Part shown: positions 50,131-58,887 of the stretch, in pieces | How the letters are laid out: each line of letters starts with the position of its first letter | How positions within the stretch are numbered: the first letter of the stretch is position 1 | DNA from: Candidatus Woesearchaeota archaeon | GTDB lineage: Archaea; Nanobdellota; Nanobdellia; Pacearchaeales; GW2011-AR1 | Assembly (NCBI GenBank): GCA_964514585.1 | Contig: CAZETU010000006.1 | Location: forward strand, 10,161 to 74,160 | Direction: 5' to 3' | DNA: 64,000 bases | The notes under the pieces: generated by a model | Database searches by the model: none | Told to the model about the DNA's origin: nothing | What the model saw: the letters and a program-made list of their open reading frames with translations, nothing else | Translations under genes and position numbers: made by a program

Positions 50131-50139
50131 AGTAGCCTC
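50131..50139. repeat. Target-site duplication, left copy (AGTAGCCTC)
   Basis: Identical to 58482-58490; both copies directly abut the TIRs. Confidence 0.95.
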
Positions 50140-50220
50140 TGCATTGTTAAGTTAACGGGAGCTTTCATTTACTAAATTTTTTCAAAACCTTTAAATACTA
50201 CTTAATCTACAAAGTATTAT

Positions 50221-50376
50221 ATGGCTACTAAAGATACTAAATCTATTAAGTCTACAACAATTAGGATAGAGCAAGAAACAAAAGAAAAAATAGAAAATCT
50301 TGATTTTGTTCGAAAAGATACATATAATCAAATCTTGCTGAAATTAATCGAGTTTCATGAGGGACATAGAAAATGA
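50221..50376 (+). CDS. Ribbon-helix-helix-type small DNA-binding protein (51 aa; missed by the ORF track)
   Basis: STTIRIEQETKEKIENL..DTYNQILLKLI; TTTAAATA at 50190; ATGA overlap with the next gene. Confidence 0.75.
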   Translation: MATKDTKSIKSTTIRIEQETKEKIENLDFVRKDTYNQILLKLIEFHEGHRK

Positions 50377-52533
50377 TAAACAAATCTAACAAAAACAATC
50401 CTTCATCCCAAATCGGGTGGGGGGCGAAGCAGAAAAGAGTTAGTAAATTCTTCTTCATAACTTTAATTTTCATTTTCTCTTTAATATTATTACCAAATTT
50501 TGTTTCAGCTTTTCTAATTTCAGATCAAGGAACAAATGTAATGGATGTTGCAACAGGAAATTTAACTGCCCTCGCTAATTTAACAATTAGTATATATGAC
50601 AATACTACTGGAGGAAATTTAATCTTTGAACAAAATTTTAGTGATGTAATAGCAAATGGTTCATGGAACGTTATGATAAACCCAAATTTAGAATATGGAA
50701 TAAGTTATTATAAAGATTATCAAATTAATGGGGAAGATTTATATTTTGATGGAAATGAGAGATTAGAATTTCAATCTTCTGTTGGAGAAATAAATAATGT
50801 TTCATTTATTAATTTTTCTTTGATAAACTCGTGTTCTGCTGGGAGTTCAATAAGATTAATTTATGCAAATGGAAGTGTTGAATGTGAGGTGGATGATGAT
50901 TCAGGAGGTTCAGGAAGTTCAAACTTAACAAATTATGCCTTTAAAGAACCAATCAGAAATATTTACGGGCAATATAACAACTTCTCAAATAGGGTTTTTT
51001 GGTTGGCTTGGAAGTTTAGCTTCAAGAATAACTAAGTTATTTGTTCAAGATATTGATGCTTCTGGAAATATTAATGCTGGAGAAAATATAACTGCTTCTT
51101 ATTTCATTGGTGACGGTTCAAAATTAATTGGCATTAATGGGACTAGCGGACCTCAAGGTGAACAGGGAATTCCAGGCGTTAATGGAACTAATGGTACAAA
51201 TGGTATCAACGGAACTAATGGAACGAACGGAGCTCAAGGAATTTCAGGTATTAACGGAACAAACGGCTCTGATGGTTATACTCCCATCTACGGAACAGAT
51301 TATATTAATGGTACAAATGGATCTCAAGGTATCCAAGGTGAGACGGGTGTCGATGGAATCAATGGAACAAATGGATCTCAAGGTATTCAAGGAATCGCTG
51401 GAGTTAATGGTACCGACGGGATTCAAGGTGAAGTTGGCGTTAATGGAACTAATGGTATCAACGGAACTAATGGCTCTGATGGTTACACACCTATTTACGG
51501 TACCGATTATATTAATGGAACTGACGGAACCGACGGGGTAGATGGACTAAATGGTACTAACGGAACAGACGGAACAACTCCTGTTTATGGCGTTGATTAC
51601 ATTAACGGAACAGATGGTGTTAACGGTGTAGACGGACTTAATGGTACCGATTTATTTACTGAAATAAATCTTACTCAATTTGATAATTCTACTGGAACTT
51701 TAAATCTTTTAGAGAGTTGGCTAACCAGTTTCCTTGATTTACTTTATGCTCCTCTAGGTTACGGAGATGATTGGAATAAAACTTACGCTGATACACTTTA
51801 CGCAGACATTTCTGTAACTGGCGATGATACTTCCTGGAATAAAACATACGCTGATACTTTATATTATGATTCTGAGTTAGATTTAACAACACTTCTTGAT
51901 GATAATTATGCCCCTGTAAACTACGGAGACGATTGGAATAAAACTTACGCAGATACTCTCTACGCTTCCTTAGCAGAAATTATTAGTTTTGGATATTATA
52001 ATTCTACAGACTTTTCTATTACAGATTATTATTTGAAATCCAATCCTTTTGGATTCTATAATTCTACTGATTTTGTTATTTCAGATTATTCTACAACTAC
52101 TCAAGCAAATAACTTATATGCTCCTCTAGGTTACGGAGATGATTGGAATAAAACTTACGCTGATACACTTTACGCAGACATTTCTGTAACTGGCGATGAT
52201 ACTTCCTGGAATAAAACATACGCTGATACTTTATATGCAGACATTTCTGTAACTGGCGATGATACTTCCTGGAATAAAACATACGCTGATACTTTATATT
52301 ATGATTCTGAGTTAGATTTAACAACACTTCTTGATGATAATTATGCCCCTGTAAACTACGGAGACGATTGGAATAAAACTTACGCAGACACATTATACGA
52401 ACCAACAAGCACTCAATTAGATGGAACTACGGTAAATATTACCTACATCAATGCACCATTAAACACTTGGTACTTCAATGCTACAGATAATTGTGAATAT
52501 TTACCAAATTCCGGAAAGGAGTGTGCTATTTAA
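50373..52533 (+). pseudogene. Collagen-like, repeat-rich secreted fibre protein split by a +1 frameshift at ~50940
   Basis: Removing one T from GCCTTTAAAG joins ORFs 50373-51035 and 50935-52533 (..TNYA-LKNQSEIF..) into 719 aa. Contains (GxN)n/GxQ triplets, GYTPIYGTDY breaks and 7 x WNKTYADTLY. Confidence 0.8.
51745..52388 (+). repeat. Internal duplication: 209 bp (51745-51953) repeated at 52117-52388 with one extra 63-bp unit
   Basis: Near-identical nucleotide copies encoding the WNKTYADTLY modules. Confidence 0.9.
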
Positions 52534-52569
52534 TGGTAATAATAATTGAATTTATTGGGGGAATAGAGT

Positions 52570-58198: not shown

Positions 58199-58261
58199 TT
58201 AGGTTATACTTTGTTAAGTAATAAGTAATATATAAACCTTTCGTTTCTAGGTATAACCTAA
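58199..58261. promoter_or_regulatory. 11-bp inverted repeats (TTAGGTTATAC/GTATAACCTAA) bracketing a TATA box in the divergent promoter region
   Basis: 58199-58209 and 58251-58261 are exact reverse complements; TATATAAA lies between them. Confidence 0.7.
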
Positions 58262-58300
58262 ATAAGTAACATTTATAAAGTAAGTTTTATTAAATAAACT

Positions 58301-58441
58301 ATGGCAGAAATAGAGATAAAAATGAGGGGTTACAAATGTGAGAGGTGTAAGCATGAGTGGATACCAAGAAATAAAAAAGAAACTCCGATTATCTGTCCTA
58401 AGTGCAAATCTCCTTATTGGAATAAACCTAAGAAGAAATAA
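58301..58441 (+). CDS. Small Zn-ribbon protein (46 aa; missed by the ORF track)
   Basis: CERCKHEW..CPKCKSPYW; TTTATAAA 29 nt upstream. Confidence 0.8.
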   Translation: MAEIEIKMRGYKCERCKHEWIPRNKKETPIICPKCKSPYWNKPKKK

Positions 58442-58470
58442 TTTTTTTAGAAGGATTAGCTCCCGTTAAC

Positions 58471-58887
58471 TTAACAATGCAAGTAGCCTCCGTATGCTTC
58501 TAGCTCTTGGGAGTATCCGTCGTGGCTGAAGTCGAAGTTGAAGATGAAAAGGAACTCTGACATTGCTCTGACGCCTATTCCCGCTTCTTTGATTATGTTG
58601 TATAGATATTCTGTGAAGCAGTAAGGACAAGTGTGTGTCTTTTTCTTATTGCAAGCTACGCAGGTTTTTGCTTTGCCTTCGAGGTGTTTGTGGGCTTTTA
58701 CAAAGTTATCGACGTCGTTCATAATTTTATTTTTTTCTTTTGGGAATTTGCTTATCCATGCTTTGAAGCCTTTTGAGATGCATTCGGGGCAAAGAGGATG
58801 GATGATGTTTTCGCCGCATGATAAACAGTCGTTGTGTTCTTTTTCAAAATAAGGTGTCTGTATAGCGACATTCTTTTTGGAGTTCAT
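58471..58887 (-). CDS. Cys-rich hypothetical protein whose stop codon is now supplied by the transposon TIR
   Basis: CLSCGENIIHPLCPEC, CVAC..CPYC; the last three residues (LHC) and TAA lie largely inside the right TIR. Confidence 0.8.
   Translation of the reverse strand: MNSKKNVAIQTPYFEKEHNDCLSCGENIIHPLCPECISKGFKAWISKFPKEKNKIMNDVDNFVKAHKHLEGKAKTCVACNKKKTHTCPYCFTEYLYNIIKEAGIGVRAMSEFLFIFNFDFSHDGYSQELEAYGGYLHC
58482..58490. repeat. Target-site duplication, right copy (AGTAGCCTC)
   Basis: Identical to 50131-50139. Confidence 0.95.

Follow-up and report, generated by a model that had tools for sequence, protein, structure and literature searches.

A single-transposase element with a surface-protein cassette in a woesearchaeal genome, and the family of DPANN transposons to which it probably belongs

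DPANN archaea live with tiny genomes in dependence on host cells, and little is known of the routes by which genes pass between them. In the genome of a Candidatus Woesearchaeota archaeon (GCA_964514585.1), a first-pass annotation had picked out a run of surface-protein-like genes lying next to one transposase between inverted repeats. This locus raises the question of whether the whole segment is a mobile element that moved as one unit and, if so, what kind of element it is and how it came to its present site. We analysed the surrounding 64,000-nt window (contig CAZETU010000006.1, positions 10,161-74,160; all coordinates below are those of the window). We find that the element is very probably a member of a large family of cargo-carrying DPANN transposons that land at the upstream edges of promoters, and that it bears a captured surface cassette.

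A unit transposon between two host genes

The element is 8,342 bp long (50140-58481), with one transposase, perfect 24-bp terminal inverted repeats (TIRs) at both ends and an identical 9-bp target site duplication (TSD; AGTAGCCTC) at either flank, as the first-pass annotation had described (Table 1). The TIR sequence TGCATTGTTAAGTTAACGGGAGCT occurs exactly twice in the window, once at each end and in opposite orientation, against no occurrence expected in shuffled sequences; these are its only two occurrences in the whole 1.04-Mb genome, in which the full-length transposase gene is also single-copy. When the interior of the element was searched for further TIR-like sites, the best candidate had at least 8 mismatches in 24 positions. 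Since there is a single transposase and no internal TIR-like site, the segment is not a composite element, and a composite or pseudo-compound transposon can be ruled out, in agreement with the earlier description of a cargo transposon not made of two IS copies. One transposase with its passengers, one TIR pair and one TSD make it a unit transposon (tIS).

Table 1. Features of the element and of its host locus
Feature	Coordinates	Strand	Basis
Downstream host gene, 162 aa, PF20603; its promoter is the one targeted	49608..50096	-	ORF and domain match
Target promoter AAACATTTATATAC (BRE-like AAA and TATA box), abutting the TSD; leaderless gene, ATG 50096 = +35	50117..50130	-	family-wide motif, register, spacing
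Left TSD copy, 9 bp, AGTAGCCTC	50131..50139	.	sequence comparison with right copy
Left TIR, TGCATTGTTAAGTTAACGGGAGCT	50140..50163	+	fits family TIR consensus
RHH-like gene, 51 aa, heading the cargo	50221..50376	+	DUF7557 E=0.0014 (sub-threshold) and sequence pattern
Fibre gene, N-terminal fragment (signal/TM segment and Cys domain), frame lost after about residue 191	50373..51035	+	homologues single-frame
Fibre gene, C-terminal part: collagen-like Gly-X-Y rich in NGT sequons, then repeated DDWNKTYADTLY modules	50935..52533	+	Pfam Collagen E=6e-23
Frameshift site, CC versus C in sister copy L171 (GCC TTT AAA versus GC TTT AAA)	50938..50939	+	comparison with L171
Predicted DUF2341/LamG surface protein, 714 aa, N-terminal hydrophobic anchor	52570..54714	+	Laminin_G_3 E=4e-18
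Predicted secreted Cys-rich protein, 194 aa	54683..55267	+	C-terminal module 73% identical to L057 counterpart
Predicted membrane protein, 562 aa: signal segment, extracellular part, three hydrophobic helices, C-terminal PRC barrel	55264..56952	+	PRC E=6.5e-7
Coiled-coil-like protein, 70 aa, Lys/Glu-rich, last cassette gene	56982..57194	+	63-73% identical to L057, L068 counterparts
Transposase, Zn finger, HTH and DDE (D141, D207, E249)	57202..58164	-	DDE_Tnp_IS240 29.6 bits; NCBIfam IS6 63.6 bits
Zn-ribbon gene, 46 aa, divergent from transposase, family core module	58301..58441	+	domain match; same position in other elements
Right TIR, 24/24 complementary to left	58458..58481	-	sequence match
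Upstream host gene, stop codon struck by the insertion	58471..58887	-	orthologues in 27/48 congeners
Right TSD copy, 9 bp, AGTAGCCTC	58482..58490	.	identical to left copy

The host locus bears the mark of the insertion. Taking out the element and one TSD copy in silico gives the upstream gene back its stop codon (...GGY*); at present this gene reads ...GGYLHC* and ends at a TAA inside the TIR. The two junctions were recovered repeatedly, one in 12 and the other in 17 contigs that had been assembled independently from several samples, at 99.6-100% identity. In congeners, the flanking genes are present and the element is not. Exact-match queries with the reconstructed 135-aa protein, meant to find an empty-site allele of this very locus, and with the 162-aa neighbour protein returned no record, a result that does not imply absence in either case. 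We conclude that the 8.3-kb segment is truly a mobile element and that it moved as a single unit.

A cargo-bearing family and its insertion sites

The transposase probably starts at the ATG at 58125, which gives a protein of 307 aa. Its DDE triad is invariant in 17 relatives, as are four cysteines (C29, C32, C56 and C59) that form a CxxC zinc finger N-terminal to the HTH and the DDE core. The structural model predicts a β-hairpin zinc module followed by helices and an RNase-H-like fold, and a Foldseek search with this model retrieved the ISCth4 transposase and retroviral integrases with a probability of 1.00, while a profile search of PDB sequences gave only chance zinc-finger matches. The profile NF050000 matches all 17 relatives tested, the window transposase scoring 23 bits against a cut-off of 28. 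In 25 of the 42 other elements that we delimited, a homologue of the zinc-ribbon gene occupies the same position, and in the encoded protein four cysteines, W20, R23 and W40 are invariant. The transposase would bind the conserved 24-bp ends and make cuts staggered by 9 bp.

Homologues of the transposase fall into 1410 protein clusters. The earlier expectation that other copies would hold different cargo between the same ends was borne out by 42 further TIR-bounded elements of 1.9-7.7 kb with varied cargo, delimited among 80 related loci; together with the window element they make 43 elements of 1,890-8,342 bp. A strict core motif misses the TTCATTGGTGCA variant of the TIR, and a relaxed motif was used that recovers the elements L057 and L068 as well as others. 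The family TIR consensus is TRCATTGTTA..TTA..GG. Across 74 ends, T1, T5, T6, G7, T13 and G19 are invariant or nearly so, the TGTT core is conserved along with G7, and 97% of the ends have T at position 1 and 39% have G at position 2. A 9-bp TSD flanks all 43 elements (41 perfect, 2 matching at 8/9). Five TIR pairs have unmatched flanks, which is at most an indirect hint of replicative ('copy-in') cointegrate transposition.

Each of the delimited elements encloses one or more ORFs in addition to the transposase, and cargo is found on either side of the core module. It consists mostly of restriction-modification and other genes, and also includes toxin-antitoxin-like genes, lipid enzymes and surface cassettes; in a Pfam tally, N6_N4_Mtase matches 15 of 103 cargo ORFs. 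Even the closest transposases differ in what they carry: those at 84-86% identity travel with restriction-modification genes. The suggestion in the first-pass annotation that a DPANN family mobilises attachment modules is thus upheld by the surface cassettes of at least two further elements, L057 and L068, but does not describe the family at large. The hosts are DPANN archaea of the Nanobdellota, in records labelled Woese-, Pace- or Nanoarchaeota. In the literature searched, we found neither the family nor any TATA-directed insertion in archaea described. The elements form a large and apparently undescribed family, set apart from IS6 by profile score and published descriptions, for which an ISfinder entry may already exist.

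The insertion sites of the family share a fixed register, its most distinctive trait and one absent from the first-pass annotation. The motif AAAnnTTTATAAA, a BRE/TATA promoter, is matched at 9 or more of its 11 positions, in exact register, beside 33 of the 43 elements, and among the first 37 to be delimited the match rate was 78%, compared with 0.4% for randomly chosen positions. In 30 of 36 flanks the best motif has an offset of 0, an outward-pointing ATG stands at exactly +35 in 11 elements, the spacing also seen beside the window element, and both insertion orientations occur (18 versus 15). These statistics show that insertions go into the 9 bp that directly precede a BRE/TATA promoter. 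Such an insertion leaves the promoter whole and pointing away from the element; in the window, the targeted promoter belongs to the gene with its start at 50096, and the upstream gene had its stop codon clipped. The promoter edge might be recognized by direct sequence read-out, by DNA shape, or as DNA bound by TBP/TFB.

The surface cassette and its capture

Profile matches support the collagen-like, Laminin_G_3, PRC and zinc-ribbon assignments of the first-pass gene list. Other entries fared less well: DUF2341 is visible in homologues only (these have PF10102 and PF13385), the RHH match stays below threshold, and the TSP1-like label is without profile support. The RHH-like gene is 96% identical in the sister copy L171, and a clearer RHH of 60 aa holds the equivalent place in L057 and L068. 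It has no similarity to the 51-aa ORF that heads the G391 cassette, and therefore may belong to the transposon and not to the captured cassette.

The element had been called intact, which fails for the fibre gene. Homologues read through ...NLTNYALKNQSE... in one frame, whereas in the window the gene is split by a 1-nt insertion, present as the identical sequence in the independent assemblies L128-L130. With its fibre gene frameshifted, the cassette may be non-functional in this host. The N-terminal fragment has a hydrophobic segment at residue 21, and the C-terminal part contains 36 N-x-S/T sequons against 10.4 expected; the 714-aa LamG protein is similarly enriched (31 against 13.3). [quoted passage not shown] The PRC-barrel protein has full-length homologues in relatives at 53-60% identity, and an ESM Atlas structure search with it gave nothing usable (TM <=0.24). 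Taken together, the signal and transmembrane segments, the sequon enrichment and the domain names suggest a role at the cell surface or in adhesion, and the domain content is consistent with attachment to a host cell; the switch in host range proposed in the first-pass annotation stays conjectural. The fibre shares Gly-X-Y repeats with the collagen-like adhesins Scl1/Scl2 and Lcl, but only that region matches (83.5 versus 325 bits, 68 versus 500 bits), it lacks an LPXTG anchor, and the domains on either side of the repeats differ from theirs and are particular to these archaea.

The same type of cassette is found inside L057 (7,723 bp) and L068 (6,630 bp), there on the other side of the core module. 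In the genomes of at least 12 relatives, it occurs with neither a family transposase nor a TIR within 10 kb, and these cassettes therefore look like resident gene clusters. In a tree of the PRC protein, the transposon-borne state needs two origins, across a split with 100/100 support, which indicates that the surface cassette was captured at least twice. The cassette of the window, once taken up, moved with its transposon as one unit. Sister copies of the window element mark two other sites in all. One of them is that of L171, whose TIR is identical and whose left end matches at 92.7% identity; this copy lies upstream of rps15 with the ATG again at +35, a site that is unoccupied in the genome of the window; L173 and L174 mark the third site.

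Alternative readings and relation to known systems

The described elements closest to this family are those of IS6, and the kinship implied in the first-pass annotation stands as a remote likeness at profile level. IS6 is the best NCBIfam match for all 17 relatives tested (best E=9.5e-31) and the window transposase marginally passes Pfam DDE_Tnp_IS240 (29.6 versus 27 bits), but it reaches only 63.6 bits on the IS6 profile NF033587, whose cut-off is 125. Both groups have a single DDE transposase with zinc finger, HTH and catalytic core; the TGTT core and invariant G7 recur in the IS6 TIR consensus GGTTCTGTTGCAAA (PMC6807381); an N-terminal zinc finger is shared with the 'long' clostridial branch (clade h of Varani et al. 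2021; clades VII-VIII of Harmer & Hall 2019); and the long and archaeal IS6 groups have, as here, a TIR consensus of more than 14 bp. Against this, IS6 elements follow an 8-bp TSD rule (PMC7986276, PMC6807381), have GG tips (PMC6807381) and measure about 0.7-1.8 kb without passengers, ISDsp3 being the one member with a passenger gene on record (PMC7986276). The present family has 9 bp in 43 of 43 cases, T(G/A)CA... ends and passengers throughout its size range, so that the ends, duplication and cargo already judged atypical for IS6 prove to be family-wide traits. It also differs in the zinc-ribbon gene that accompanies the transposase, in its DPANN hosts and in its strict promoter-edge insertion. 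To our knowledge, no comparable target preference has been reported for IS6. IS26-type elements are widespread in plasmids, and a tblastn search of 72,556 plasmids with the transposase gave no match, including to any plasmid IS; BLAST-level similarity to IS6 is absent. The view that the element is a described IS6/IS26 member, an unusually large tIS like ISDsp3 that moves by IS26-type cointegrates and offers nothing new at family level, could also invoke the few elements with good TIRs and unmatched flanks, as recombination between copies would give. Given the differences above, and since the long and archaeal 'IS6' elements have themselves been argued to be separate families (Harmer & Hall; PMC6807381), we consider it quite improbable. 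In layout, the element agrees with the tIS or unit transposons of ISfinder and TnCentral (ISDsp3, IS1595-group tIS), whose transposase and passengers likewise share one TIR pair and one TSD, except that here passenger carriage is the rule for the whole family and the cargo is very diverse.

Three other readings concern the sites, the cargo and the assembly. The promoter-edge pattern could be a leftover of purifying selection and not an intrinsic preference, in genomes of 0.5-1.6 Mb with tiny intergenic spacers from which only surviving insertions are sampled, the more so as the window TSD overlaps a stop codon. As 9 bp are duplicated, insertions overlapping a gene end or the start of a promoter would also be tolerated; yet the motif holds offset 0 without spread and the +35 spacing is exact, and we regard this reading as unlikely. 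Viral receptor-binding proteins often contain collagen-like fibres and LamG domains, and the cargo might accordingly come from a virus, as a module for receptor binding or fibre formation, or the 'chromosomal' cassettes might lie in proviruses, their spread reflecting virus-host conflict. The contig of the closest LamG homologue (39% identity) indeed encodes a DNA methylase and many small ORFs running in the same direction, and the cassette is patchy, with matches at E<=1e-10 in 85 of 401 genomes and near full-length ones in only about 20. The transposase family, however, appears just once in 2.9 million viral contigs, in a relative with unmatched flanks, and the presence in the cassette of a polytopic membrane protein whose PRC barrel is cytoplasmic suits a cell-envelope complex, so that we find a viral source rather unlikely. 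Lastly, the fibre repeats do break short-read assemblies, independent contigs ending at 51888-52269, and one might suspect an assembly chimera or a small IS beside a resident cassette with a stray second end. The identical TSD at the outer ends, the restored host stop codon, the many independent assemblies of each junction, the congeners without a cassette at the locus and the sister copies with the same left end at other sites leave this a practically negligible chance.

We therefore return to a widespread transposon family that always bears cargo and has sharply defined ends and a fixed 9-bp TSD. Its fixed register on a basal promoter is unusual for prokaryotic DNA transposons. Yeast Ty3 integrates at Pol III start sites and S. 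pombe Tf1 at Pol II promoters; in both, as here, the position relative to the basal promoter is fixed and coding sequence is spared, but they are LTR retrotransposons tethered by transcription factors, whereas the present family consists of archaeal DNA transposons. In this respect, it is tempting to speculate that the family docks on the archaeal pre-initiation complex or on promoter DNA bent by TBP/TFB, with the zinc ribbon as a possible adaptor, and that, landing safely in this way, it would time and again take up envelope cassettes and defence genes and spread them between DPANN lineages and alter the hosts to which they can attach. We hold this idea to be possible though doubtful; if true, such docking would be a prokaryotic DNA-transposon counterpart of promoter tethering of the Ty3/Tf1 type.

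Insertion at promoters without breaking genes may also make these elements a genetic tool for archaea. For the biology of DPANN organisms, the family offers a concrete vehicle by which defence genes and whole surface-protein cassettes could move between them, and the capture of one cassette type on two independent occasions hints at selection for the mobility of envelope modules.

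Structure of the element and its locus

The element is bounded by a 24-mer, TGCATTGTTAAGTTAACGGGAGCT, which has exactly two copies in the window (chance expectation 0), in inverted orientation, and is absent from the rest of the genome (1.04 Mb, 18 contigs searched), and the direct duplication AGTAGCCTC borders both ends. When the element and one duplication copy are removed in silico, the minus-strand gene at the right junction, which at present terminates ...GGYLHC* at a TAA within the TIR, regains its stop (...GGY*). The window transposase is the sole full-length copy genome-wide, and the G+C content of the element is 31.9%, versus 36.6% for the window. 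These exact repeats and the restored stop bear out the first-pass annotation, which had described a TIR pair, a flanking duplication and a single transposase in a cargo element. It had also judged that the element is not a composite of two IS copies, and that arrangement is indeed ruled out by the single transposase and by the lack of an internal TIR, the closest sequence inside the element having 8/24 mismatches.

Features of the element and its borders (window coordinates)
Feature	Coordinates	Strand	Remarks
Cargo transposon	50140-58481		8,342 bp
Duplication copies	50131-50139; 58482-58490		
TIR, left	50140-50163	+	
TIR, right	58458-58481	-	
Transposase	57202-58164	-	single gene inside element; likely start, ATG at 58125
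Zn-ribbon gene	58301-58441	+	divergent from transposase
Fibre protein (two ORFs)	50373-51035; 50935-52533		signal/TM segment, collagen-like region, C-terminal repeated modules
Direct repeats in fibre gene	51772-52399		193 nt, 95% alike
Contig breaks	51888-52269		
DUF2341/LamG protein			second cargo product
Cys-rich protein			194 aa
PRC-barrel protein			562 aa; three membrane helices, PRC barrel C-terminal
Coiled-coil-like protein			70 aa
Cys/Trp modules	54370-54711; 55040-55190		C-termini of LamG and 194-aa proteins
PF20603 gene	49608-50096	-	162 aa, beside insertion
Right-junction gene	58471-58887	-	

An assembly artefact is rejected, since contigs from several samples match the window at 99.6-100% identity across each junction. 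Twelve contigs carry the transposase protein, and 17 carry the left-flank gene, called as an ORF reaching into the TIR; these contigs span several samples of JGI, ENA and Logan origin. Contig breaks are confined to the direct repeats of the fibre gene, the break point of every short-read assembly of the population, and the number of these repeats may differ between cells.

The description of the element as intact does not hold for its cargo. The two fibre-gene ORFs overlap in different frames, six translated homologues read ...NLTNYALKNQSE... uninterrupted in one frame, and paired matches lie in a common frame at ten homologous loci. At the corresponding position the related locus L171 reads GC-TTT-AAA and the window GCC-TTT-AAA, and the additional C at 50938/39 is also found in independent assemblies, which indicates that the fibre gene is disrupted in the population. 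The disrupted gene may be either a pseudogene or a switch for phase variation.

Congeners keep the gene order TyrRS, small Zn-protein and ThiI without the element. The PF20603 gene is not at this position in most of them, where the small Zn-protein gene directly adjoins thiI, and in one related genome (G030) it is found on the opposite side; variation at the locus is therefore independent of the transposon. Other copies speak for mobility of this lineage. A metagenome scan with the exact TIR as query turned up the sister copy L171, which carries an identical TIR, a left end 92.7% identical over 920 bp and an RHH gene 96% identical, at a different site (candidate duplication TACTCAAGC, flank CAAACTTTAAAAAC, rps15 ATG at +35); the homologous rps15 promoter is unoccupied in the window genome. 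Two further loci, L173 and L174, mark a third site, where the same left end (88-92% identical) follows a TIR of variant sequence.

A transposon family with IS6-like features

Homologues of the transposase form 1410 clusters, the named ones being Pace-/Nanoarchaeia, and the gene is present in 25 of 61 related genomes. Among 80 loci from reference genomes, 42 more elements could be delimited by paired TIRs and 9-bp duplications (40 perfect, two at 8/9). At 1,890-7,723 bp they are all smaller than the window element, and the family ends follow the consensus T-R-C-A-T-T-G-T-T-A-(A/C)-(C/G)-T-T-A-R-M-G-G..T. In 25 of these 42, a Zn-ribbon gene (46-60 aa) is found immediately upstream of the transposase in divergent orientation, with cargo on either side of this core module. 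The cargo is varied: N6/N4 DNA methylases make up 15 of 103 cargo ORFs, alongside D12 and C5 methylases, MjaI, MvaI/BcnI and Mrr nucleases, MazE-like and Fic proteins, NUDIX and CDP-archaeol synthase. The nearest transposases (84-86% identity) accompany restriction-modification rather than surface genes; cargo is therefore exchanged more quickly than the transposase sequence changes. The proposed DPANN family of cargo transposons holds up, and its generalisation to a family of attachment modules proves too broad.

The closest transposase relative (86% identity; L107, ena:ERZ27256796 k141_94685) belongs to a 3,561-bp element with duplication TTCTGATGC and D12 methylase cargo, on a contig to which many small ORFs and a serine resolvase give a plasmid- or virus-like look. 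At L084, L103, L104, L170 (the only IMG/VR match) and also L036, TIR pairs are good or perfect and the flanking 9-mers mismatched (2/9), as would be expected from recombination between two copies or cointegrate resolution. At L082 (9267-9866, minus strand) the Zn-ribbon is fused to a C-terminal domain of ~150 aa (200 aa in total); this product may be a Zn-ribbon-Fic fusion, Fic/DOC being among the cargo Pfam matches.

Four N-terminal Cys residues and the D141/D207/E249 triad of the transposase are invariant, and the protein also contains a helical DNA-binding region. Its predicted structure (pLDDT 77) shows an RNase-H-like core and, among PDB entries, is most similar to the ISCth4 (IS256-family) transposase and to retroviral integrases. 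The IS6 label stands only in part. In its favour, IS6 is the best NCBIfam profile in 17/17 relatives tested, and the family ends share the TGTT core and G7 with the IS6/IS26 end consensus GGTTCTGTTGCAAA (PMC6807381). Against it, the window transposase reaches 63.6 bits where the cut-off is 125, and the first base of the family ends is T. Furthermore, IS6 elements make 8-bp duplications, and ISDsp3 is the only one reported with a passenger gene (PMC7986276), whereas this family makes 9-bp duplications and carries cargo. Taken together, the family is IS6-like in ancestry and layout, nearest to the zinc-finger 'long' branch, yet lacks the defining features of IS6, as judged by profile and by published consensus and descriptions. 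A tblastn search of the transposase against 72,556 plasmids gave no match, and no description of the family was found in the literature searched.

Cargo genes and origin of the surface-protein cassette

In the window element, an RHH-like gene is followed by five products. All four larger ones have N-terminal hydrophobic segments, and N-x-S/T sequons are in excess in the fibre protein (36 vs 10.4 expected, ~3x) and the LamG protein (31 vs 13.3, ~2x); these predicted features fit glycosylated envelope proteins, and we infer a role in adhesion. The LamG and 194-aa proteins have a weak C-terminal Cys/Trp module in common (31% over 51 aa, pairwise E=3e-4). For the LamG protein, the nearest homologue (39% identity; L149, ena:ERZ23498683 scaffold_915) is encoded in a stretch of ~18 small co-directional ORFs, accompanied by another LamG protein and a C5 methylase, on a contig of virus-like look.

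At least 12 related genomes have the cassette genes in the same order, with neither a transposase nor a TIR of the family within 10 kb; the PRC protein is 53-60% identical there and the fibre N-terminus 55-83%. Two other elements, L057 (3296-11018, duplication GTAATGTAG) and L068 (4297-10926, duplication TATAAATCA), enclose the same cassette type; in them it lies between TIR and Zn-ribbon gene, and thus flanks the core module on the side opposite to that in the window element. In the PRC-protein tree, the window copy clusters with 17 transposase-free copies, and L057 and L068 belong to the second deep clade, a 100/100 split. Since a single origin of the transposon-borne state is compatible with none of the bootstrap trees, the cassette was captured at least twice. 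At L151 (G013:C10, ~1004) and L093 (~8383), the distance between a family TIR or element and a cassette outside it is 2.7-4.7 kb; these loci could be capture intermediates, or both features may merely sit in a variable island.

Insertion at promoter edges

Flanks were oriented outward from each element, and the sequence directly past the duplication was scored against AAAnnTTTATAAA. This motif is matched at 9/11 or better, in exact register and on one side, in 33 of 43 elements; among the first 37 delimited, 78% match it, versus 0.4% for randomly chosen positions of these loci, and the best such motif is at offset 0 in 30/36 flanks. Eleven elements have an outward-pointing ORF with its ATG at exactly +35, the spacing expected when a leaderless archaeal gene follows a BRE/TATA promoter. 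The window flank is AAACATTTATATAC (read from 50130 to 50117), and the next gene has its ATG at 50096, likewise +35. Both orientations relative to the transposase are seen (18 vs 15), and the 9-bp duplicated sequences show little consensus among themselves.

Because the duplication keeps both neighbours whole even where it reaches into them, selection alone predicts scattered offsets and not a spike at zero. We read promoter-edge insertion as a probable intrinsic target preference of these transposons. Absent from the first-pass annotation, insertion at promoter edges is the most distinctive property of the family.
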